Of a DNA stretch of 64,000 nt, positions 4,296-36,151 are shown one piece after another. Numbering within the stretch: the first letter of the stretch is position 1; each line of letters starts with the position of its first letter. The stretch comes from Escherichia coli (GTDB lineage: Bacteria > Pseudomonadota > Gammaproteobacteria > Enterobacterales > Enterobacteriaceae), in assembly GCF_045037415.1 (NCBI RefSeq), contig NZ_CP173438.1. One strand, written 5' to 3'. The position numbers and the translations under genes were made by a program. The notes beneath the pieces were generated by a model. It did not search any database. It saw only the letters and a program-made list of their open reading frames with translations, and was not told where the DNA came from.

Positions 4296-5216
4296 TTAAA
4301 TGTATAACGACGATTCACCCACCGGGCGCGTTTTAAAGCGACGGTGTATCCAGAGGTACTGCTCCGGTGCGCGCATGATCTCTTTCTCGATAATCTTGTT
4401 CATATAGGCAGCGGCTTGATTTTCATCTGTCGGGTAGCCTTCCATCTCTGGGGTGATGTACAAACGATATCCGCTGTAATCCGCTTTTCTTACCATCGTT
4501 ACGGTCAACATGGCTGCGCCAGAGAGACGAGAGAGGACATAGGTGCCATTGGTTGTGGCGACATTTTCCACCGCAAAGAACGGCGCGAAGGAGCTGCCTT
4601 TACGACCATAATCCTGATCGGGAGCAAACCATACCGCTTCACCTTTCTTCAGTGCACTGACAATGCCGCGCAGATTATTTCTGCCGATCATCGCTTTGTT
4701 AGAGCGCATGCGACCACGGGTCTGGACCCATTCCATCAGCTGATTATTATGCGGGCGATAGGTGGCCATCATTGGTTGGCAAAGTCCCATCACCCGACCG
4801 CCCAGTTCCAGCGACATAAAATGGACGCCGACAACCATTACGCCGCGATTTTGCATTTGTGCGCGTTTAAGGTTATCCAGCCCTTCCACATCAAACCATT
4901 TACGTACGCGACTGTCGGGCCAGAACCACGCCATGCCGGTTTCTACCAGCGCCATGCCGAGTGAACGAAAGTTTTCGGCAATCATCTTCTCGCGCTCTTC
5001 CGCAGAATGCTGCGGGAAACAAAGTTCCAGGTTTTTACGGGCGATAGATTCACGACGTTTCAGGAATGGTCGCGCCATTGTGCCGATACGCGTGCCGAGA
5101 AAGCAGAGAACAGGATAAGGAAGCTGTACCCAAAGCCAGAGTACACCAAGCCCAAACCACGTGAGCCAGTAGCGAGGATGCAGAAACTCGCGGGAAAATT
5201 TGCATTTTGGAAACAT
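4296..5216 (-). CDS. lpxP: Lipid A palmitoleoyl acyltransferase LpxP (306 aa)
   Basis: ORF 328 aa; trimmed to internal Met giving MFPKCKFSREFLHPRYWLTWFG..., the LpxP/LpxL-family N-terminus. Confidence 0.85.
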   Translation of the reverse strand: MFPKCKFSREFLHPRYWLTWFGLGVLWLWVQLPYPVLCFLGTRIGTMARPFLKRRESIARKNLELCFPQHSAEEREKMIAENFRSLGMALVETGMAWFWPDSRVRKWFDVEGLDNLKRAQMQNRGVMVVGVHFMSLELGGRVMGLCQPMMATYRPHNNQLMEWVQTRGRMRSNKAMIGRNNLRGIVSALKKGEAVWFAPDQDYGRKGSSFAPFFAVENVATTNGTYVLSRLSGAAMLTVTMVRKADYSGYRLYITPEMEGYPTDENQAAAYMNKIIEKEIMRAPEQYLWIHRRFKTRPVGESSLYI

Positions 5217-24400: not shown

Positions 24401-24490
24401 CCCAGCCCAGCCCAGCCCAGCCCAGCCCAGCCCAGCCCAGCCCAGCCCAGCCCAGCCCAGCCCAGCCCAGCCCAGCCCAGCCCAGCCCAG
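24401..24490. repeat. Pentanucleotide microsatellite (CCCAG)x18
   Basis: Read directly: 90 bp of perfect CCCAG units, then CCCCAACAAA. Confidence 0.95.
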
Positions 24491-24582
24491 CCCCAACAAA
24501 CCTAATGCAGTCTTTAGTTTACAAATTGTTACATATATTATTCGTCAAATTTCATTATTATCAGAGAGGTAATGACTCCAAC

Positions 24583-25086
24583 TTATTGATAGTGTTTTAT
24601 GTTCAGATAATGCCCGATGACTTTGTCATGCAGCTCCACCGATTTTGAGAACGACAGCGACTTCCGTCCCAGCCGTGCCAGGTGCTGCCTCAGATTCAGG
24701 TTATGCCGCTCAATTCGCTGCGTATATCGCTTGCTGATTACGTGCAGCTTTCCCTTCAGGCGGGATTCATACAGCGGCCAGCCATCCGTCATCCATATCA
24801 CCACGTCAAAGGGTGACAGCAGGCTCATAAGACGCCCCAGCGTCGCCATCGTGCGTTCACCGAATACGTGCGCAACAACCGTCTTCCGGAGCCTGTCATA
24901 CGCGTAAAACAGCCAGCGCTGGCGCGATTTAGCCCCGACATAGCCCCACTGTTCGTCCATTTCCGCGCAGACGATGACGTCACTGCCCGGCTGTATGCGC
25001 GAGGTTACCGACTGCGGCCTGAGTTTTTTAAGTGACGTAAAATCGTGTTGAGGCCAACGCCCATAATGCGGGCTGTTGCCCGGCAT
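24583..25086 (-). CDS. insB: IS1 transposase InsB (167 aa)
   Basis: [53 protein letters not shown]..., matches IS1 InsB. Confidence 0.95.
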
Positions 25087-25280
25087 CCAACGCCATTCAT
25101 GGCCATATCAATGATTTTCTGGTGCGTACCGGGTTGAGAAGCGGTGTAAGTGAACTGCAGTTGCCATGTTTTACGGCAGTGAGAGCAGAGATAGCGCTGA
25201 TGTCCGGCGGTGCTTTTGCCGTTACGCACCACCCCGTCAGTAGCTGAACAGGAGGGACAGCTGATAGAAACAGAAGCCAC
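25005..25280 (-). CDS. insA: IS1 InsA (91 aa)
   Basis: [43 protein letters not shown]..., matches IS1 InsA. Confidence 0.95.
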
Positions 25281-25528
25281 TGGAGCACCTCAAAAACACC
25301 ATCATACACTAAATCAGTAAGTTGGCAGCATCACCTATCAGAGATTAACAAGCATTGGCAAAGGTTGTCACTCAGTAATACTCACCATTATTAACTATTA
25401 TTCACCATTATTTAGTATTCAAATTCTTTGAATGAGTTTGAAAGTGCCAGTCTTTACGTATTAATTCTTCTGTGCAAGTATATATACACCCAATAGAGAC
25501 TAATTAAGTCTTAGTATAAATATCTAAT

Positions 25529-25771
25529 GTGAAGGACATAGCCATGAGCTTATTGCCTCGGGAAAACGCACCCCAAAAAAGATATAGACTTCTGAGAATA
25601 TCAGAAGTGATTAATTTGACTGGCTTACCCAAGTCAACAATTTATCTAAAGATAAAGAATGATGAATTTCCGAACCAAGTTTCTATCGGTTCTCGTTCTG
25701 TTGCATGGGTGGAGCATGAAGTTAATGAATGGATAGAGAAGAATATTCTCAATAGAAAATTAAACTCCTAA
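25529..25771 (+). CDS. AlpA-family phage transcriptional regulator (HTH); true start may be the internal Met at 25544
   Basis: ORF 80 aa with YRLLRISEVINLTGLPKSTIYLKIKNDEFPNQVSIGSRSVAWVEHEVNEWI, the AlpA/MerR-like HTH pattern. Confidence 0.75.
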   Translation: MKDIAMSLLPRENAPQKRYRLLRISEVINLTGLPKSTIYLKIKNDEFPNQVSIGSRSVAWVEHEVNEWIEKNILNRKLNS

Positions 25772-25788: not shown

Positions 25789-26649
25789 ATGGTTGACAAT
25801 GTTTTTAAGAAGAAATTGGCATCAATTAAGAACGAACATGTGTCGGTGTTAGATAGTTACAAAGTAAGATCATTTAAAGAGACTCATAGCGACACGGCCT
25901 GTATTGTGCGTATTATTGAAATATATTCACTGAATAAGCTGCGAGCTAAAGGTGAAAAGCTGTATTCACTTACGGGGTTAACAGTACCTGATACGGAAAC
26001 TGTGGCGAATGAGATCAACCTGCTCCTGAGCCGTTATGCCCAGTTGTGTCGTCAGGAAGAGGAAGAGTTATCTTTCCGGCAGCGTGAAGTGACAAATGCG
26101 GAAGTTGCATGGAAAAGCACATTCTCAAAAAACGGCGTCAGTAGCATTGCTGAAGCCAAAACGAATAAAATGGGGCATGCTGAACGAGCGGATGCTGAAC
26201 GGTATTACCATCTGGCTGTTTCCCGGTTGAATGAACAACATAGTCGATTGAGCACGATCAAGCTTTTGCCGGGAGTACTGGCCGATGAAGGAAACTACAT
26301 TGGGAAGGGAATCGATAAGCGTTTACTGAATATATTTCCTCAATCCGGCCAGATCCCTGCTGATTTTATTTCTGTATTTAATGACAGTGACGTTGTCCGT
26401 GATATTAAATTTATTACTGATGCACTCAAGTCTTTATCTGATTCCGTGAGTGAAATTATTAGTCGTTGTAGCGTTCCAACTGATCGTTATGTATTAAATA
26501 ACGGTGGAATGGCAAGAGCTATGGCTTACAGGGAGTACTATCGAGCAGATAATTATGTATTACGTTCAGTCGTAAGTGACCGGGATTATGTTGAGCATGT
26601 AATGAAATACAATCTGGTTACTGAGTACAAAAATAAAATCTTTTCTTAA
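25789..26649 (+). CDS. Hypothetical protein (286 aa) directly upstream of capsid-like gene; possible scaffold or capsid-remodelling protein
   Basis: ORF track only; consistent coding frame; function assigned by position, not by motif. Confidence 0.5.
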   Translation: MVDNVFKKKLASIKNEHVSVLDSYKVRSFKETHSDTACIVRIIEIYSLNKLRAKGEKLYSLTGLTVPDTETVANEINLLLSRYAQLCRQEEEELSFRQREVTNAEVAWKSTFSKNGVSSIAEAKTNKMGHAERADAERYYHLAVSRLNEQHSRLSTIKLLPGVLADEGNYIGKGIDKRLLNIFPQSGQIPADFISVFNDSDVVRDIKFITDALKSLSDSVSEIISRCSVPTDRYVLNNGGMARAMAYREYYRADNYVLRSVVSDRDYVEHVMKYNLVTEYKNKIFS

Positions 26650-26671
26650 ATACTTAAAAAGGTGAAAAACT

Positions 26672-27676
26672 ATGTATGCCTTCAAAACTGAAAGGCCGGA
26701 CGCAGCACGTCGTTATCATAATAAATTCGTCACTGGCACTAACTATCAGGAAGAATCAAACAGACGCTTTGCATTAAGCGAACCTACTGAAAATATACTG
26801 CGTACCTCAATTCTGGAATCCGGGTGGCTTATTAAAAATATTACCCTACGTGATGTTAACGCCGTGTCAGGTAATGCCGTCAATATTGGTGCCAGTGAAC
26901 TGTATACCGGACGTGTGGATGGTGGCCGTTTCCACAAAAAAATGGCAATCAATGGTACGGAGTTCTTTCTGACAGAGACGGATACCTGCGCCCGGATCAG
27001 CTATTCCGATATGTCTCATATTTACCATACCGGCGTGCCGGATGAGTTTGAGAAAACGGTTGAGAGCTTTTTTGCCCAGGCATATGCGCTGGACATGCTG
27101 CGGGTCGGTTTCAACGGTGTGTCGATTGCAAATACTACAAACCCGGAAATCAATAAAAAAGGCGAGGATGTCAATATTGGCTGGCATGCACTGGCGAAAG
27201 CCTACGGGAACGGAAAGCAAATCATCTCTGAGCCTGTCACTCTGGGAGAGACTGGCACCTGGAAAAATATTGATGCTCTGGCCAACCATCTGATTACAGA
27301 GCTTATTGCTGAGCAGTTTCGTGAAGATCCTCGTCTGGTTGTACTGGTTGGGGCAGAGCTGGCAGCACATCAACGCCTGAAGTTATTTAATGCCGCAGAC
27401 CGCCCGTCTGATGTGAATGCGGCACAGATGGCTACAAGTTCTGTTGCTGGCCGCTTTGCGTTTATTCCCCCGTTTATGCCGGGTAAGCGTCTGGCAGTAA
27501 CGACGCTGGATAATCTGCATATTTACACTCAGGCGATAACACGCTGGTTTCGTGCTGAGTTTGATGATGAAAGCAGTGAATACGTGCATTCCTACCTGCG
27601 CAATGAAGGTTATGCACTCGGTGAACCTGAACTGTACGCGGCTGTTGATGAGTGCACCCTGACGTTTGCGGATTGA
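26672..27676 (+). CDS. P2-GpN-like major capsid protein homolog (334 aa)
   Basis: Blocks FALSEPTENILRTSILES..., MLRVGFNGV...NIGW..., DALANHLITELIAEQFREDPRLVVLVGAEL and TLDNLHIYT align by eye with my recollection of P2 GpN; needs profile confirmation. Confidence 0.45.
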   Translation: MYAFKTERPDAARRYHNKFVTGTNYQEESNRRFALSEPTENILRTSILESGWLIKNITLRDVNAVSGNAVNIGASELYTGRVDGGRFHKKMAINGTEFFLTETDTCARISYSDMSHIYHTGVPDEFEKTVESFFAQAYALDMLRVGFNGVSIANTTNPEINKKGEDVNIGWHALAKAYGNGKQIISEPVTLGETGTWKNIDALANHLITELIAEQFREDPRLVVLVGAELAAHQRLKLFNAADRPSDVNAAQMATSSVAGRFAFIPPFMPGKRLAVTTLDNLHIYTQAITRWFRAEFDDESSEYVHSYLRNEGYALGEPELYAAVDECTLTFAD

Positions 27677-27905
27677 CTTAGCGACAGAAAGACCCGCTCA
27701 GAGGCGGGTTCGTTTACAGCATCAGGAAAAATGAAGAACTATTTTTAAGCAGAGGCTTAAGCATGCCAGCGTTAATTAATCCAGGCAATGATCAGTTTTC
27801 GGTTATAAATTTCTTGCCTCACCAGGAATGCGCGGGATATAGTTTAAAGGTTGCCGCAAAATCGGCAGCCGGGCGTAGGAACCCGTGTTATCTGAAGGCG
27901 ATACT

Positions 27906-27929
27906 ACACGCGCTAGGCGTGTTTTTTTG
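27906..27929 (+). terminator. Rho-independent terminator inside the apparent non-coding leader upstream of the primase operon
   Basis: ACACGC-GCTAG-GCGTGT hairpin followed by TTTTTTT. Confidence 0.55.
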
Positions 27930-28149
27930 TGTCGCAGCTTTGACTCACCTAAAATTTATGGTGTGGTGGCTGATTGTATTTTTTTATTTTTTACGCCACA
28001 TCATCAGAATTATGGTAGTCCAGGCGGGGCAGCTTTCGGGCTGGCCGGTATCCTTCAGAGCCGGTATTCCTACCCCCGTCTGGGCTACCACCCATGAGCG
28101 TAGGAACTCCGGTGGTAGCGTTACCCGCTATCTGAAGGAGGTTGCCATT

Positions 28150-28353
28150 ATGGCTACAGTCCCTGCTTTATCTCACCCTGAATTTACCTTTGTCTTTCTG
28201 GCTGTCCGCCGTACAGACCGTGATGCCCGTCCACGCCCTGTGCGTGTAATCGCAGAATGCGAGCATGCTGCACGCCTTAAACTTGCCACTGAATTTATCC
28301 TGAGCTTTGCTGCCCGTATCCCTGTGAAAAGAGCCGGGGAGGTGGTTGCATGA
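28150..28353 (+). CDS. Small hypothetical protein (67 aa), first gene of a translationally coupled operon
   Basis: ATG at 28150 preceded by GAAGGAGG; stop overlaps next start (ATGA); the 196-aa ORF-track call 27763-28353 is treated as spurious upstream of this Met. Confidence 0.4.
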   Translation: MATVPALSHPEFTFVFLAVRRTDRDARPRPVRVIAECEHAARLKLATEFILSFAARIPVKRAGEVVA

Positions 28354-28586
28354 AATCCATGAATTTTAAGCAAGGCTGCATATTGAGTGAACAGGGGGAG
28401 AGTCGTCTGTTACGGGCGGCACTGGCCAGTGAGTTTCTTGCAGAGGTCTTGTCCGTGCCCACAGTGAATGGAGCGAGAACTGTTTCAGCGGAAGGCGCTG
28501 CGGCTTTAGTGGCCTGTATTGCCGAACAACTGGATGGCGTTGTTAAGGAAACCAGCACAATTAAGGGAGTGATGCGCGATGAATAA
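28350..28586 (+). CDS. Small hypothetical protein (78 aa)
   Basis: ORF track; start overlaps upstream stop and end overlaps next ORF. Confidence 0.45.
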   Translation: MKSMNFKQGCILSEQGESRLLRAALASEFLAEVLSVPTVNGARTVSAEGAAALVACIAEQLDGVVKETSTIKGVMRDE

Positions 28587-28989
28587 TAATCAAAATTTAA
28601 AGGCGCATGCTTTACGAACAGCAGTCTTACGCTACTACATTGCTGATGCATTCATTTCCTTAATGGTGCGTGTTCATAATGAACCTGTTTATATTGAAGA
28701 TGGCGAACGAATAGAACTCTCCCACGAAAAAGTGGTGAGTAATATTATTTACCATATTGAAATGCCGTGGGTGAATGAGTTTGGGGCTGATGCTGGTTGC
28801 ATACTGGCCGCAGAGAAACTGGAAAAAATGCTTAAACCAGGCTTTATGTCAGAAAATATTCGCCTGTCAGTTTTTGGTGTCACAGAGATGCGTGAGGTTT
28901 ACCGGGATATTATTTTCGGAGCACCTGATGGCGAACTACCCGAAGGTTTTGAATTTGTGAAGCCGGAAGGTCAGGAGGTGCTGCTGTGA
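28579..28989 (+). CDS. Hypothetical protein (136 aa) immediately upstream of primase
   Basis: ORF track; 4-nt overlap with primase start suggests coupling. Confidence 0.5.
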   Translation: MNNNQNLKAHALRTAVLRYYIADAFISLMVRVHNEPVYIEDGERIELSHEKVVSNIIYHIEMPWVNEFGADAGCILAAEKLEKMLKPGFMSENIRLSVFGVTEMREVYRDIIFGAPDGELPEGFEFVKPEGQEVLL

Positions 28990-31673
28990 AAACACCGTCT
29001 GTATCCACGATTTCCGGAGCTGCAATTGGGCGCTGGCCTTATATCCTGTCAGCATTAGGTATTAAAGTACCGTCCGCAGGACATCATGGGGCTTGCCCTG
29101 CCTGTGGTGGAAAAGATCGTTTTCGACTGGACGATAAAGCGGGGCGAGGGACGTGGTTTTGTAATCAGTGCGGTCATGGCGATGGTCTTGATCTGGTTCG
29201 TCTGGTGACAGGAAGAAAGATAAAAGAAGTCGCCGGGATGGTATCTGAGGCGCTTGCATTACCAGAAATACAGGAGAAGCCCGCATTGCCAGCCAGGAAA
29301 AAGGCCGCAGGAAAAGAAGCGGGCGCGGAGCGATATACCAGACTCAGACAGCAGTCCTGCAATGGTGAGCCGGTCTATCTGACAAATAAGAGCTTACACG
29401 GGTATTCACTTCCCTTGCTGTCACAGCCTTTGAATCTGGCCGGAATAACATTTTCCACCGGTTCATTACTGCTGCCTTTGACGGATATTTCCGGGAATAT
29501 TACTGGTGGCCAGCTTATCAATCCTGACGGGGATAAAAGTCTGCTGCCCGGTAGCCAGCTGTCTGGCGCATTCATTGCCCTGACCGATATACCCGCTGAA
29601 ACACCTGAACAGGTGATTATCACTGAGGGTTTTGCCACGGCGCTTACCGTCAGTCTGCTGACTGAAGGATGGATCGTGGCGGCTGTCGCTGCCACCAATT
29701 TACTGAAGGTGACGGAGCAGATCCGAAAACGCTGGCCGGAAACCCGGATCATTCTGGCCGGAGATAATGATCTGGCTGACGGCAAAGAAAACACCGGGCG
29801 TATTCAGGCAGAGAAAGCCGCCAAAGCGGTGGATGGCTGGGTAACGCTCCCTCCGGTACGCCATAAGGCTGACTGGGATGATTATCGGCAGGAAGTGGGG
29901 AAAGAACGGGCGAGAGATGCCTTTCGTGAAGAAATGACGCTGCATGGCAAAGGGCAGACCCGTTTACCAGAAGGGTTCCGGCTGACAAAAGAATATTTGT
30001 GGTACGACAAGCTGGTTAATAAGTCTGATGGTGATACAGAGATACGTAATATCAAAATTTGCAGTCCGTTGCGGGTGACGGCAATCACCAGTGATGCTGA
30101 TGGAAGTAATTACGGGCGTTTGCTGGAATGGGAAGATACCAACGGAAACAGCCGTAAATGGGCAATGCCGATGGAGATGCTGGGCGGTAGCGGGGAAGAA
30201 CTGCGCCGCGTTCTGCTGGTTAACGGGCTTTCTTACATCAACATTAACGGCATGGCCAGAGCATTCCTGATGGAATATATCTCGCTGTGTAAACCGGACA
30301 GAAAAGTAACCTGTGTGAATAAAACTGGCTGGCACGGCGGGGTTTACGTTCTCCAGGATGAAGTGATAGGGCGCGAAGCCCAGTCAGTCATCTTACAAAC
30401 ATCGAGTGTGCAGGGGCGTGATTTTCGTGTCAGCGGCACATCAGAGGGCTGGCGTGAAAATATAGGCCGTTATTGCATAAAGAATGCCCGTCTTGCCTTT
30501 GCGGTGAGTCTGGCATTTGCTGCCCCCCTTCTGAAACTGGTTGGTATCGGCGGTGGAGGTTATCACCTCAAAGGGGAATCCACAGACGGTAAAACCACGA
30601 CGATGAAAGTGGCTGCATCAGTATGTGGTGGAACAGATTTCTGGCATACGTGGCGGGCGACGGGGAATGCCTTAGAAGGAACGGCGAGCCGCCGCAATGA
30701 TGCCACGCTGATGCTGGATGAAATCCGGGAGGTTGACGGCAGGGAGGCGGGAAATATCGCTTATATGCTGGCTAACGGGCAGGGCAAAGCCAGAGCCAGA
30801 ACAGATGGTTCGGTAAGGGAAACCAACCGCTGGAATCTGTTGTTTCTGTCTACCGGGGAACTGTCACTGGTAGAGCATGCGGCAAGCGCCGGGGAACGTA
30901 CGTATGCCGGGGTTGAGGTCAGAATGATCCAGATCCCAAGCGATTCGGGCAAGTATGGCGTGTTTGAAGAACTTCATGGCTTCAGTAGCGGGAAAACCCT
31001 GGCTGAGCATCTTGAGCAGCACGTAGCGCATTATCATGGTGCACCATTCCGCGACTGGCTGTATTGCCTGACCGCTGATCTGCCGGAACTGACCAGTCAG
31101 GCGAAAGCCTTATTGAAAGAGTATACCCGAAGGCTGACGCCGGAAAATGCCGGGAATCAGGTTGGCCGGGCTGTTACCCGTTTTGCTCTGGTTGCGATGG
31201 CCGGGGAGCTGGCCACAAAAGCGGGCATCACAGGATGGCCGGAGGGAGAGGCCTTTCGTGCCGCTCAAAGCTGTCTGGCTGCATGGATGGCTGACCGGGG
31301 CCATACAGCTAATCAGGAAGATAAAGCGGCACTTGAACAGGTTCGGGACTTCATGACGCGTAATCAGTTCAGTCGGTTTGCTGACTGGAATGACGACAGG
31401 AACCGGCCTGTTTCAATGATGGGATTCAGAAAAGTCGATAAAGGAGACAACGTGACAGAGCCGGTTGTGACGTTCTACGTTCTCCCGTCAGGCTGGAAGG
31501 AGATCTGTAAGGGATTTGACTCGCGTAAGGTGGCCAGGTTGTGTGTGGACGCGGGCTGGCTGAAACCCGGTGAAGATGGCCGGACGCAAAACAGCATTCG
31601 CCTGCCAGAAATAGGGCTTAAACGTGTGTACCAGTTCAATACACAGGTACTGGGAAGCGCTGAACCTGAGTGA
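28986..31673 (+). CDS. P4-alpha-like zinc-binding primase-helicase (895 aa)
   Basis: N-terminal CPACGG...FCNQCGHGDG zinc-finger pair; Walker A GESTDGKTT; overall satellite replication-protein architecture. Confidence 0.8.
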   Translation: MKTPSVSTISGAAIGRWPYILSALGIKVPSAGHHGACPACGGKDRFRLDDKAGRGTWFCNQCGHGDGLDLVRLVTGRKIKEVAGMVSEALALPEIQEKPALPARKKAAGKEAGAERYTRLRQQSCNGEPVYLTNKSLHGYSLPLLSQPLNLAGITFSTGSLLLPLTDISGNITGGQLINPDGDKSLLPGSQLSGAFIALTDIPAETPEQVIITEGFATALTVSLLTEGWIVAAVAATNLLKVTEQIRKRWPETRIILAGDNDLADGKENTGRIQAEKAAKAVDGWVTLPPVRHKADWDDYRQEVGKERARDAFREEMTLHGKGQTRLPEGFRLTKEYLWYDKLVNKSDGDTEIRNIKICSPLRVTAITSDADGSNYGRLLEWEDTNGNSRKWAMPMEMLGGSGEELRRVLLVNGLSYININGMARAFLMEYISLCKPDRKVTCVNKTGWHGGVYVLQDEVIGREAQSVILQTSSVQGRDFRVSGTSEGWRENIGRYCIKNARLAFAVSLAFAAPLLKLVGIGGGGYHLKGESTDGKTTTMKVAASVCGGTDFWHTWRATGNALEGTASRRNDATLMLDEIREVDGREAGNIAYMLANGQGKARARTDGSVRETNRWNLLFLSTGELSLVEHAASAGERTYAGVEVRMIQIPSDSGKYGVFEELHGFSSGKTLAEHLEQHVAHYHGAPFRDWLYCLTADLPELTSQAKALLKEYTRRLTPENAGNQVGRAVTRFALVAMAGELATKAGITGWPEGEAFRAAQSCLAAWMADRGHTANQEDKAALEQVRDFMTRNQFSRFADWNDDRNRPVSMMGFRKVDKGDNVTEPVVTFYVLPSGWKEICKGFDSRKVARLCVDAGWLKPGEDGRTQNSIRLPEIGLKRVYQFNTQVLGSAEPE

Positions 31674-31699: not shown

Positions 31700-31888
31700 G
31701 GTAACACTGGTAACAGAGGTAACACCCGTTACTGATGCGGTTCTTCAGTGTTACCAGTCAAAAATACTGACTGGTAACAGAGGTAACAAAAAATGGTGTG
31801 TTACCACGCGTTACCTCTTGATTTTGCTAACTGGTAACAGATTAAATCCTTTTAAATCAATAGCGTTACACGTGTTACCAGTGTTACA
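31700..31888. promoter_or_regulatory. Iteron cluster, candidate origin of replication of the element
   Basis: At least 12 copies of GGTAACA / TGTTAC(C/A) in both orientations within ~190 bp just 3' of the primase gene. Confidence 0.55.
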
Positions 31889-31955
31889 CGTTCAGAACAA
31901 GAGGTAGGGATCCAAATCCCTTCTTCTGGCGGGCAACAGTATAGGGCACAGAACG

Positions 31956-32907: not shown

Positions 32908-33789
32908 ATGAGTCATAATAAAAAGGAATATGCTAAATTTTTCCGTCGCCCCATTTTTTCATCCTTAGCAAAAGGTAAGGATATTTCGGATTTATTTGGG
33001 AGTTTTGATTCTTACTGCTATGAAACACTGTTTTCAAACAATGATAATAATGAACATGAGATTTCACTAAGGGATTTATTTACATCATTATATGATTTTT
33101 TGCGTCTGAATTATAGAAATGAATATGTTTATAAGACAGCACTTGTCAATAAAATAATATTCGGTAAGCACAGCCCAAAAACAAGTTCGTCGTCCATAGA
33201 GTTACCAATTAAAAACTCTATAGTGGATGTTGCGGTGTTTAATGGTACGTCTACAGCTTACGAGATTAAGACAGAGTATGATTCACCAAAAAGGTTGATT
33301 ACTCAAGCCCCTGATTATTTGGATGTTTTTGATAAAGTGTATATAGTTACACATCCAGAGTATGCAAGTAAATATTGTGCTTTAAATCTCCCCAGAGTGG
33401 GAGTTATGGTTTTGAATAAAAAAGATCAATTGAGTGTCATTAAGGAGGCAGATTCAAATATTGATTATATTAAAAGTGACAGCTTGTTTTCAGTTCTTAG
33501 AAAGGAAGAGTTCTTAGCTATAATAGAAGATTACACTTCAACTAAAATAAATATGCCTAACGGATTGGTTTATGAATATTGTAAAGAGATATTCATGCAG
33601 ATGCCATTAAACATAGCAAATAAATACTTTATCTCTGCTATGAAAAAAAGATGTAACGATAAAGTTTTTTTGGATTATATTTATTCTCTTCCAGCATGTT
33701 TACGTGTTTTAGGTTATGCAACACCATTATCAAGAAAGCAAAAAGAATTCATCATGAATTTGATGGATGTAAAAATTAAAATTTGTTGA
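32908..33789 (+). CDS. Hypothetical protein A (293 aa), AT-rich cargo gene with PD-(D/E)xK-like motif
   Basis: ORF track; IVDVAVFNGTSTAYEIKTE (D107 ... E119-x-K121) resembles a restriction-endonuclease-fold catalytic core; strong AT bias unlike flanking DNA. Confidence 0.6.
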   Translation: MSHNKKEYAKFFRRPIFSSLAKGKDISDLFGSFDSYCYETLFSNNDNNEHEISLRDLFTSLYDFLRLNYRNEYVYKTALVNKIIFGKHSPKTSSSSIELPIKNSIVDVAVFNGTSTAYEIKTEYDSPKRLITQAPDYLDVFDKVYIVTHPEYASKYCALNLPRVGVMVLNKKDQLSVIKEADSNIDYIKSDSLFSVLRKEEFLAIIEDYTSTKINMPNGLVYEYCKEIFMQMPLNIANKYFISAMKKRCNDKVFLDYIYSLPACLRVLGYATPLSRKQKEFIMNLMDVKIKIC

Positions 33790-33810
33790 TATCCTCAGGA
33801 GTTGTAAGTT

Positions 33811-34761
33811 ATGTATAGCCCATATTTGTATGCGAGAAGTACAGAGTTATTATGCCTTAGGGACCTCGTTGCGAAGGGAGTTAGCCTAAATGGTCTGCTA
33901 CCAATTTTAGAACCAATTAACGTCAATACGAGAAATTTATTAACATGTTTAAATGTTTGGAATTCTGACATAATTGTTATCCTTAATCCTTATCAGGAAG
34001 ATTTTTCTTCACACAATAACGTCTTAACTTTAAATCAAAATTTATCAAGTGTATTAACAAATAAAAATAATATCATCTCTGGATATCTTATTCAGCCCAA
34101 TACAACGATTAATGATATTAATAATTGGTTGAATGCTAACTTAAATAGACGAGTTGCACTTCTATATGATAATCCATCATTATCCAACTCTGATATTCAG
34201 TTGTTGGCGACAAATCAATTGATTAGTTATCATGTTGTTTTAAATAATAAAATGCTTCCTAATCAGTGCGCTCTTCTTCCTTTGTCGAAGTTAATTATTA
34301 TTAGCGATAACTTTAGAAAGTTAGCAAAAAATGCTGATTATAATGGGCCGGAACTTTTCACGCACGCACATCAATTCGTGGGACAAAATTACTTAGGATT
34401 TGGCGATTATACAATTACTGGCCAGGTACTAGATCTTGGAGGTGGTCAACCTTCTGCTGTTGCCGCACATTTGGTGTTCAAGAATTTACAAGCGAATACA
34501 GTTTGGATTCGTCATTTTGTATCAAGCAACACGCAACGAGGAAGTTCAAATGTTACTGCAAAATTTTTAGATGTTTCAGATCAAATTACAAATCTTGTTC
34601 CCCAACATCCAACCCAGTTTGGCAGCAACATTGGTCTTAACTATTATTATTACAATAGTCAACCAACTGTAAGGCATTTCCCTGGGTTGCCAAAAAACAA
34701 ACAGTATCAAATTACTCACCATATTTGTTTCATGCTGGATTTAATAGCAGGTCGTATTTAA
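33811..34761 (+). CDS. Hypothetical protein B (316 aa), AT-rich cargo gene, Asn/Ser/Leu-rich, no motif I can assign
   Basis: ORF track; AGGAG Shine-Dalgarno 8 nt upstream; 21-bp gap from gene A; 3' end overlaps integrase 3' end convergently. Confidence 0.6.
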   Translation: MYSPYLYARSTELLCLRDLVAKGVSLNGLLPILEPINVNTRNLLTCLNVWNSDIIVILNPYQEDFSSHNNVLTLNQNLSSVLTNKNNIISGYLIQPNTTINDINNWLNANLNRRVALLYDNPSLSNSDIQLLATNQLISYHVVLNNKMLPNQCALLPLSKLIIISDNFRKLAKNADYNGPELFTHAHQFVGQNYLGFGDYTITGQVLDLGGGQPSAVAAHLVFKNLQANTVWIRHFVSSNTQRGSSNVTAKFLDVSDQITNLVPQHPTQFGSNIGLNYYYYNSQPTVRHFPGLPKNKQYQITHHICFMLDLIAGRI

Positions 34762-36075: not shown

Positions 36076-36095
36076 ATGGTGTCCCCTGCAGGAAT
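36076..36095. repeat. tRNA-proximal attachment-site repeat (overlaps argW 3' end)
   Basis: ATGGTGTCCCCTGCAGGAAT, identical to 24261-24280. Confidence 0.8.
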
Positions 36096-36151
36096 CGAAC
36101 CTGCAATTAGCCCTTAGGAGGGGCTCGTTATATCCATTTAACTAAGAGGAC
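36077..36151 (-). tRNA. argW: tRNA-Arg (anticodon CCU)
   Basis: Reverse complement reads GTCCTCTTAGTTAAATGGATATAACGAGCCCCTCCTAAGGGCTAATTGCAGGTTCGATTCCTGCAGGGGACACCA; cloverleaf with CCU anticodon and T-arm GGTTCGATTCC. Confidence 0.9.

Follow-up and report, generated by a model that had tools for sequence, protein, structure and literature searches.

Three overlapping ORFs upstream of a primase gene

The window analysed here is a 64,000 nt stretch of an Escherichia coli chromosome (contig NZ_CP173438.1), and our subject is a run of three small open reading frames (ORFs) that leads into the primase gene of an ~11 kb island integrated within it. ORF1 (28150-28353, 67 aa), ORF2 (28350-28586, 78 aa) and ORF3 (28579-28989, 136 aa) each start with ATG, and the primase gene (28986-31673, 895 aa) starts with a GTG that lies inside the ORF3 stop; these genes, and the promoter, RNAs and pairing sites described with them, are all on the strand shown (+). 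The initial annotation had reported overlapping ORFs of 67, 78 and 136 aa that run directly into the primase gene, and we find the same coordinates and lengths, with a 4 nt overlap between ORF3 and the primase gene. Its description of the junctions as ATGA-type is accurate for ORF1/ORF2 (28350-28353, ATGA, a 4 nt overlap), whereas the ORF3/primase junction (28986-28989) is GTGA and ORF2 and ORF3 share an 8 nt overlap (28579-28586) that reads ATGAATAA. A GGAG-type Shine-Dalgarno sequence is located 6-9 nt upstream of each start, within the preceding gene.

Related elements were gathered from viral contigs and public assemblies and are referred to by L-numbered loci; the junction comparison includes the window and ten other diverged elements, between which the ORF proteins are 40-98% identical. 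The ORF1/ORF2 junction is ATGA and the ORF3/primase junction RTGA in all ten of these other elements, ORF2 and ORF3 overlap in every one of them (by 8, 11 or 14 nt), and the Shine-Dalgarno sequences are conserved across all 11; the GTG start of the primase gene inside the ORF3 stop is kept in 7 of the 11. Between elements, with the exception of the close relative L020, the proportion of synonymous differences (pS) is near saturation at 0.54-0.83, while that of nonsynonymous differences (pN) is 0.19-0.44. Against L020 the ratio of nonsynonymous to synonymous substitution rates (dN/dS) is 0.15 for both ORF2 and ORF3. For ORF1, dN/dS is 0.2-0.27. Since pN is far below pS for all three ORFs, we conclude that they are protein-coding genes under purifying selection, and the possibility that they are spurious was rejected on this evidence. 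Retention of the overlaps in spite of nearly saturated synonymous sites indicates that these too are maintained beyond chance and are under selection. We also note a 118 aa ORF on the opposite strand (28295-28651).

The RNA cassette, ORF1 and the long eta-like frame

The initial annotation named the small ORFs and missed what lies directly upstream of them, a promoter followed by an RNA cassette that is evident in an Rfam scan. A promoter scan places a constitutive promoter similar to PLE of phage P4 at 27814-27843 (TTGCCT, an 18 nt spacer and TATAGT), with transcription predicted to start at about 27850, coincident with the 5' end of a match to an isrK-type leader RNA (27850-27927; RF01394, 68.9 bits against a gathering threshold of 50). 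This leader corresponds to the seqA region of P4 and has at its 3' end an intrinsic terminator, made up of a hairpin (27906-27922) with a U-run after it. It is followed by an antisense immunity RNA of the C4/CI type (28008-28095; RF01695, 81.1 bits against a gathering threshold of 45), which matches the model over its full length (1-87), with a core of two hairpins inside a long stem. Loop 2 of this RNA contains seqB, CCTTCAGA (28052-28059), for which there are two exact complements: an 8 nt seqA target, TCTGAAGG (27891-27898), inside the isrK leader, and a seqC target in which the same TCTGAAGG (28131-28138) extends to a 9 nt complement, TCTGAAGGA (28131-28139), that overlaps the ORF1 Shine-Dalgarno sequence AGGAGG (28136-28141). 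The seqC complement stops 10 nt before the ORF1 ATG. P4 and five of six analysed relatives have this geometry too, the exception being L029, in which the complement is 7 nt long and stops 12 nt before the ATG. The leader region folds with a z-score of -4.8, and seqA is paired to seqB in the minimum-free-energy structure.

The three pairing sites vary together as three alleles across eight elements. P4 has TTCACAGG at seqA and seqC with CCTGTGAA at seqB; the window, L003, L026 and L027 have TCTGAAGG with CCTTCAGA; and L020 and L022 have TCTAACGG with CCGTTAGA, a 7 nt variant of which is present in L029. The close relative L020 thus has a different allele from the window at all three sites, yet in ORF1 and ORF2 the two are 95-97% identical.

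The arrangement of seqA, seqB and seqC is that of P4 immunity (PMC10111431, PMC4825925), and the relationship extends to the nucleotide sequence, in that window positions 27740-28360 are 79% identical to P4 8790-8160. Both promoter hexamers and both RNAs are kept in this alignment, as are the ORF1 start codon and the Shine-Dalgarno sequence that precedes it; the isrK (8692-8615) and C4 models each match P4, whose CI RNA scores 74.9 bits on the C4 model. The P4 left operon has the order PLE, seqA, CI RNA, seqC, kil/eta, epsilon, orf151, ORF106/cnr and alpha. The earlier comparison of the three ORFs with the P4 genes upstream of alpha is thus borne out at the level of the operon, by this identity and by gene order, while its assignment of individual genes is not, as discussed below. 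The C4-type RNA just upstream of ORF1 appears to turn the operon off. A match of ~110 nt at 85% identity to the C4 RNA region is also present in ~890 E. coli plasmid records, where it is annotated as 'ash family protein'; this RNA cassette thus recurs widely on plasmids or phage-plasmids.

ORF1 scores 68.1 bits (cut-off 25, E = 5e-19) on the NCBIfam model NF033153 (Icd-like), and shares 53% identity with the final 65 codons of a P4 frame once annotated as 'cI' (ORF137). Its position is also orthologous, since it leads the ORFs that follow the CI RNA, its Shine-Dalgarno sequence is located at seqC, and it is nested in an eta frame. Judged by sequence and position, ORF1 is a homologue of P4 kil and a member of the Icd-like family.

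The frame in which ORF1 is nested is a long eta-like ORF of 196 aa (27763-28353) that starts with ATG at 27763 and contains ORF1 in frame. It is open in 10 of the 11 elements, whereas the other two frames contain 3-12 stops, and Pfam Phage_ASH matches residues 26-141 of its product at 3e-32, as it does P4 eta/orf199. RefSeq annotates only this long form, as 'host cell division inhibitor Icd-like protein', and the PHROG label for it is 'transcriptional repressor'. The openness of the frame, the Phage_ASH match and the RefSeq annotation could be taken to mean that only the 196 aa protein is made and that the 67 aa ORF1 has no separate product. We regard this as very unlikely, because transcripts from the PLE-type promoter, which is internal to the long ORF, can encode only the 67 aa form, and because the internal ATG has a strong and conserved Shine-Dalgarno sequence that is itself the target represented by seqC. 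Moreover, the Icd-like model is limited to the last 67 aa, and the Phage_ASH match and the middle of the long frame are mostly a translation of the isrK and C4 RNA genes. In P4 both nested products have been described, the short, cell-killing Kil and the long Eta; Eta can be translated only on a late transcript coming from upstream, and termination is prevented when this happens (PMC10111431). The short ORF is also intact in L026, in which the long frame is broken. The break in that element is caused by an extra T in a T-run, and its primase gene is cut to 69 codons (4408-4617); L026 looks like a decaying copy, since the near-identical L028 is intact. Some confusion may attach to the name Ash (PF10554), which is equated with epsilon in PMC8628076; in P4, epsilon (PF25738) is a separate gene downstream of the Ash frame.

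Cassettes of this kind are present in several other systems. The likeness to immI of phage P1 (c4 RNA, icd and ant) is in the C4-family antisense RNA (Rfam RF01695 and RF03163 matches). In P1, C4 derives from the same transcript as its targets, one of which overlaps the ribosome-binding site of the Icd-type ORF, and translation of icd is needed for expression of the coupled downstream gene. The P1 payload is the Ant anti-repressor, whereas replication genes occupy this position here, and a tblastn search of a phage collection with ORF1 found no P1 match at E<=1e-3; direct homology to P1 Icd is therefore not shown. The anti-immunity locus of the phage-plasmid N15 consists of an isrK/C4-type RNA, the icd-like gene 32, gp31 and the Ant gene 30. 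Its Icd-like ORF, which shares 42% identity with ORF1, is preceded by matches to isrK and C4 in Rfam, and two cistrons follow with ATGA overlaps, the first encoding a 76 aa protein. It differs in that gp31 has no detectable relation to ORF2 and the last cistron encodes an anti-repressor rather than a primase. In the isrK-orf45-anrP region of Salmonella Gifsy-1, the isrK RNA with its terminator precedes a read-through mRNA on which the stop of a small ORF overlaps the next start (AUGA) and translation of the small ORF is required for translation downstream; the authors consider IsrK a structural homologue of P4 SeqA (PMC4825925). There, however, the short IsrK RNA acts in trans to switch translation on, with an anti-repressor as the payload, whereas the layout here is that of P4, in which CI/C4 represses.

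Taken as a whole, we consider it probable (roughly 0.78) that the early replication operon of a P4-like satellite begins with these three ORFs and is gated by an RNA immunity cassette of the P4/P1 type. According to this model, the PLE-like promoter would constitutively transcribe a leader containing the isrK/seqA and C4/CI RNAs, and the loop of the processed C4/CI RNA (CCTTCAGA) would pair with TCTGAAGG both in the leader and at the ORF1 Shine-Dalgarno sequence. Pairing would block the ORF1 ribosome-binding site and leave ORF1 untranslated, and the bare, C-rich 5' stretch of ORF1 would then permit premature transcription termination by Rho, as in P4, such that ORF2, ORF3 and the primase gene are silent while the island is quiescent. 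The only 78 nt segment between 27850 and 29175 with at least 1.5 times as much C as G lies at 28162-28239, within the 5' part of ORF1 (C 37%, G 18%), and is a candidate Rho utilization (rut) site that would be exposed when ORF1 is untranslated. The block could be bypassed in two ways, either by transcripts from an upstream late promoter, on which the 196 aa eta-like frame would be translated through the cassette, or by titration of the RNA; a candidate for the late promoter is a TGT-N12-ACA dyad 58 nt upstream of alpA, the first gene of the island. Following bypass, ribosomes would cover the message and the overlaps would let translation proceed from one cistron to the next, ORF1 through ORF2 and ORF3 to the primase gene, with ORF1 acting as a small toxic Kil/Icd-type protein that doubles as a translational sensor.

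Several points weigh against this proposal. Translation of the 67 aa form, coupling and termination are all inferred by homology. RNA structure predicted at the junctions is not significant (z between 0 and -1.5), and with a Shine-Dalgarno sequence of its own at each start and no masking, independent initiation is possible. The eta-like ORF is not overlapped with alpA, unlike in P4, and instead follows the capsid gene after an 86 nt gap that contains a hairpin, so the bypass by late transcripts may differ from that in P4. This GC-rich hairpin, GACCCGCTCAGAGGCGGGTTC (27688-27715), lies between the end of the capsid gene and the eta-like start and could restrict read-through from the capsid gene into the early operon.

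Coupling by the unmasking of ribosome-binding sites was dropped as a mechanism in view of the insignificant junction structure, and in the absence of masking any coupling would be by proximity, through termination and reinitiation. Translational coupling is nonetheless strongly suggested by the conserved overlaps. Four-nucleotide overlaps are common in bacterial and phage operons, and together with the good, canonically spaced Shine-Dalgarno sequence at every start and the lack of significant local structure masking the junctions, this could indicate that the overlaps reflect genome compaction only, each cistron initiating independently of its neighbours. We think this unlikely, given that the overlap class at each junction is invariant despite saturated synonymous sites, that most elements keep a weak GTG start for the primase inside the ORF3 stop, and that P4, P1 and Gifsy-1 need translation of the first ORF for downstream expression (PMC10111431, PMC4825925).

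ORF3, ORF2 and the primase

The initial annotation had found no recognizable motif in any of the three ORFs and had looked to profile and structure searches for their families. Such searches do assign ORF1 (Icd-like) and ORF3 (phrog_5991/DUF5375), while ORF2 remains without a Pfam or NCBIfam family and the predicted folds are uninformative. Its mapping of the genes to epsilon and orf151 needs revision, in that ORF1 corresponds to kil, ORF3 belongs to the ORF106 family, and ORF2 occupies the epsilon slot and is unrelated to epsilon.

ORF3 matches phrog_5991 at 8e-38, as does P4 ORF106 at 2e-55, and of the 61 ORF3 homologues listed, most have a precomputed assignment to PF17345 (DUF5375), P0044 (99% identical) among them. 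The two proteins are 29% identical in alignment; a pairwise BLASTP comparison of ORF3 and ORF106 gave nothing significant, and the link is visible only at the profile level. Identification of ORF3 with orf151 was considered and rejected, since ORF3 shares a PHROG with ORF106 and is not similar to orf151 (BLASTP E = 1.5); phrog_10748, which contains orf151, is matched by none of the three ORFs. AlphaFold2 predicts a structure for ORF3 with a mean local confidence score (pLDDT) of 84 and a predicted template modelling score (pTM) of 0.80, and fold searches with it returned nothing informative, so that no function could be read from the fold.

P4 ORF106 adjoins alpha directly upstream, and a DUF5375 gene is located directly 5' of the primase gene in the window, P4, L003, L036-L038, L041 and L044, being missing in L034, L042 and L043; DUF5375 is the only family common to those inspected element types in which the interval from ORF2 or epsilon to the primase still holds a gene. 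ORF3 has a conserved C-terminal extension of 30 residues, with the conserved tail YRDIIFGAPDGELP, and this long form of DUF5375 (135-136 aa) always occurs with an 895 aa DUF927 primase, whereas the short form (106-107 aa) always occurs with a 777 aa alpha. The pairing of long and short forms by primase type fits a partner relationship with the primase. The primase of the window has zinc ribbon, Toprim and DUF927 domains in Pfam, and over its N-terminal 200 aa it shares 40% identity with P4 alpha.

We take cnr to be the 106-codon P4 gene that precedes alpha and whose product binds alpha and limits replication. According to PMC8628076, 90% of P4-like elements have, between the Ash ORF and alpha, a member of one gene family that includes P4 cnr. 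We therefore read ORF3 as a putative Cnr-type protein, the long form of the DUF5375 family and a proposed partner and regulator of the primase. Four points count against this: in a local Pfam search ORF3 scores 13.4 bits, against a DUF5375 gathering cut-off of 30 bits; P4 ORF106 is listed in UniProt as 'uncharacterized protein ORF106'; the published support cited here for taking ORF106 to be cnr is the indirect statement in PMC8628076; and, with a primase of the DUF927 type rather than alpha, regulation of the Cnr kind need not extend to this island. A full-text literature search on cnr and DUF5375 returned nothing useful.

ORF2 matches phrog_38507 and has no Pfam or NCBIfam family, and a Pfam scan of 22 members of its family gave only noise. 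The family is narrow, with 43 clusters at 90% identity, all from Enterobacteriaceae, and 10 clusters at 50% identity among 1.84 billion representatives. The AlphaFold2 prediction is a two-helix hairpin (pLDDT 78); a structure search against BFVD only gave no match at E<=0.001, and no function is readable from the fold. No defence family in PADLOC is matched by ORF2 or ORF3, and tblastn searches of the INPHARED phage collection with these two ORFs found no match.

Those ORF2 homologues for which there is enough context are located directly after kil/eta and before DUF5375, except that in L042, L043 and L034, from which the DUF5375 gene is absent, the homologue adjoins the DUF927 primase gene directly. 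All homologues with context are in the same satellite architecture, in which a capsid protein is encoded. ORF2 is a conserved, uncharacterized core protein of this satellite lineage, which has a P2-type capsid gene of its own in place of sid and psu.

The slot between kil and DUF5375 is occupied by epsilon and orf151 in P4-type islands, by a gene for a 74 aa protein in another type, and by ORF2 here, and we conclude that it is variable. The 74 aa family, exemplified in a leuX island (L038), may be related to ORF2: the motif EQLDGVV occurs in both at the same place in the second helix, and the hhalign probability for the two families is 12% over 23 columns. A 75 aa small protein of P4-like satellites mentioned in PMC8628076 is putatively the L038 protein.

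The position of ORF2 suggests a helper-directed role like that of epsilon. The recurrence of the isrK-C4-icd cassette in front of anti-repressors is the main argument for such a role, and it is an argument from position. It is possible, though less likely than not, that ORF2, alone or with its neighbours, is a functional equivalent of epsilon that inactivates the repressor of a P2-like helper once the RNA block is lifted. ORF2 follows kil directly with an overlapping start, as epsilon does in P4 and in P4-type E. coli islands, and it is the most divergent of the four genes, with a divergence that tracks ORF1 and the immunity module best (Spearman 0.75 with ORF1 against 0.55 with ORF3), as would be expected of a helper-facing protein; these correlations, however, are from non-independent pairs and differ modestly. 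The genes behind the isrK-C4-icd cassette of N15 lead to the Ant anti-repressor, and c4-icd-ant of P1 has the same layout. In Gifsy-1 the ORF coupled behind isrK-orf45 encodes the anti-repressor AnrP (PMC4825925). Homology provides no encouragement, since none of the three ORFs has a Pfam match to epsilon (PF25738, phrog_10016), ORF2 gives no BLASTP alignment with epsilon, none of 22 family members matches PF25738 at E<=1, and hhalign probabilities are 0.24% for epsilon and 0.6% for N15 gp31. AlphaFold2 gives ORF2 a simple helical-hairpin fold, for which structure comparison yielded nothing informative, and identities of 57-97% across many genera, under purifying selection, are rather uniform for a protein that tracks diverse helper repressors. 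We suggest only tentatively, then, that ORF2 founds a new helper-directed family, an anti-repressor unrelated to epsilon that would provide the derepression function of the capsid-encoding P4-like lineage.

A role in replication rather than towards the helper would make ORF2 an accessory or regulatory factor of the DUF927 primase-helicase, acting for instance as a loader, as a partner that binds the origin or as a further regulator of copy number. All homologues with context co-occur with a DUF927-type primase, ORF2 abuts the primase gene in the three elements that lack DUF5375, and it was not found in the P4-type elements examined, which have the 777 aa alpha. We find this role doubtful, because the same elements have the capsid module and kil cassette in common as well, making the link to the primase inseparable from lineage; because the divergence of ORF2 correlates no better with the primase than with ORF1; and because ORF2 has no recognizable DNA-binding or ATPase motif.

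The island, its relationship to P4 and implications

The island is located between dsdC and a tRNA-Arg(CCU) gene (36077-36151) and is integrated at argW. Its gene order is alpA (25529-25771), a gene encoding a 286 aa protein without an assigned family, a P2-family major capsid gene (26672-27676; 334 aa, Pfam 9.5e-67) that with the preceding gene spans 25789-27676, the region studied here, the primase gene, an Ogr/Delta zinc-finger gene, the cargo pair sce7726 and sce7725 (32908-34761), and a tyrosine integrase gene, which is the last of the island. The island lacks both psu and sid and has its own P2-type capsid gene; relatives L035 and L042 additionally contain a scaffold-like Phage_GPO_N gene. 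A capsid-encoding P4-like architecture was not found in the portions of the satellite surveys PMC8628076, PMC10085698 and bioRxiv 2026.02.27.708500 that were available. Near-identical copies are present in 442-447 of 5426 complete E. coli genomes (~8%, or about 1 in 12), and near-identical proteins are named from Salmonella and Citrobacter.

In its early operon the island shares with P4 the promoter hexamers, an isrK-type seqA leader and a C4-type CI RNA, a seqC site over the Shine-Dalgarno sequence of a 65-67 aa kil gene nested in an eta frame of ~196-199 aa, a DUF5375 gene directly before a zinc-ribbon/Toprim primase gene, and overlapping cistron junctions. The differences are in immunity specificity (TCTGAAGG/CCTTCAGA here against TTCACAGG/CCTGTGAA in P4), in the replacement of epsilon and orf151 by a single unrelated 78 aa gene, in a DUF5375 protein that is 30 aa longer, and in the helicase part of the primase, which is of the DUF927 type (895 aa) here and of the alpha type (777 aa) in P4. 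In addition, the eta frame follows a P2-family capsid gene here whereas it overlaps alpA/orf88 in P4, and the island is without psu or sid.

A number of other features of the locus deserve mention. TGT-N12-ACA dyads, the motif type of the Ogr/Delta-activated late promoters of P2 and P4, are located at 25471-25488 (58 nt upstream of the alpA start) and at 31882-31899 (57 nt upstream of the ogr/delta start); over the whole window the motif occurs 19 times against 15.8 expected, that is, without enrichment. The first cargo gene, sce7726, matches PADLOC 'cll' (P4 cII) at 1e-18, and in relatives the cargo slot contains DUF5343 with HEPN_Swt1, KwaA/KwaB or an OLD-like ATPase, which makes the slot a defence hotspot. 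Between dsdC and the island there is a copy of the insertion sequence IS1 (24583-25280, with insA/insB-like ORFs), which is missing from the otherwise identical locus of strain SK1144 (L001) and is adjoined by a perfect pentanucleotide repeat, (CCCAG)x18.6, at 24401-24493.

The unit described here is a variant of the known RNA-gated early operon of P4, in which two of the three ORFs belong to known families and ORF2 is unassigned. What had been three anonymous small ORFs thereby become a testable regulatory unit, a proposed RNA-gated and ribosome-relayed replication switch of a phage satellite. There is also an implication for annotation, in that the 196 aa 'Icd-like protein' of RefSeq and the Pfam 'Ash' family are largely the translation of two RNA genes. 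The three co-varying alleles of seqA, seqB and seqC amount to natural compensatory mutants for studies of RNA-based satellite immunity, and the target of ORF2, once found, would show how a capsid-encoding lineage senses or awakens its helper.

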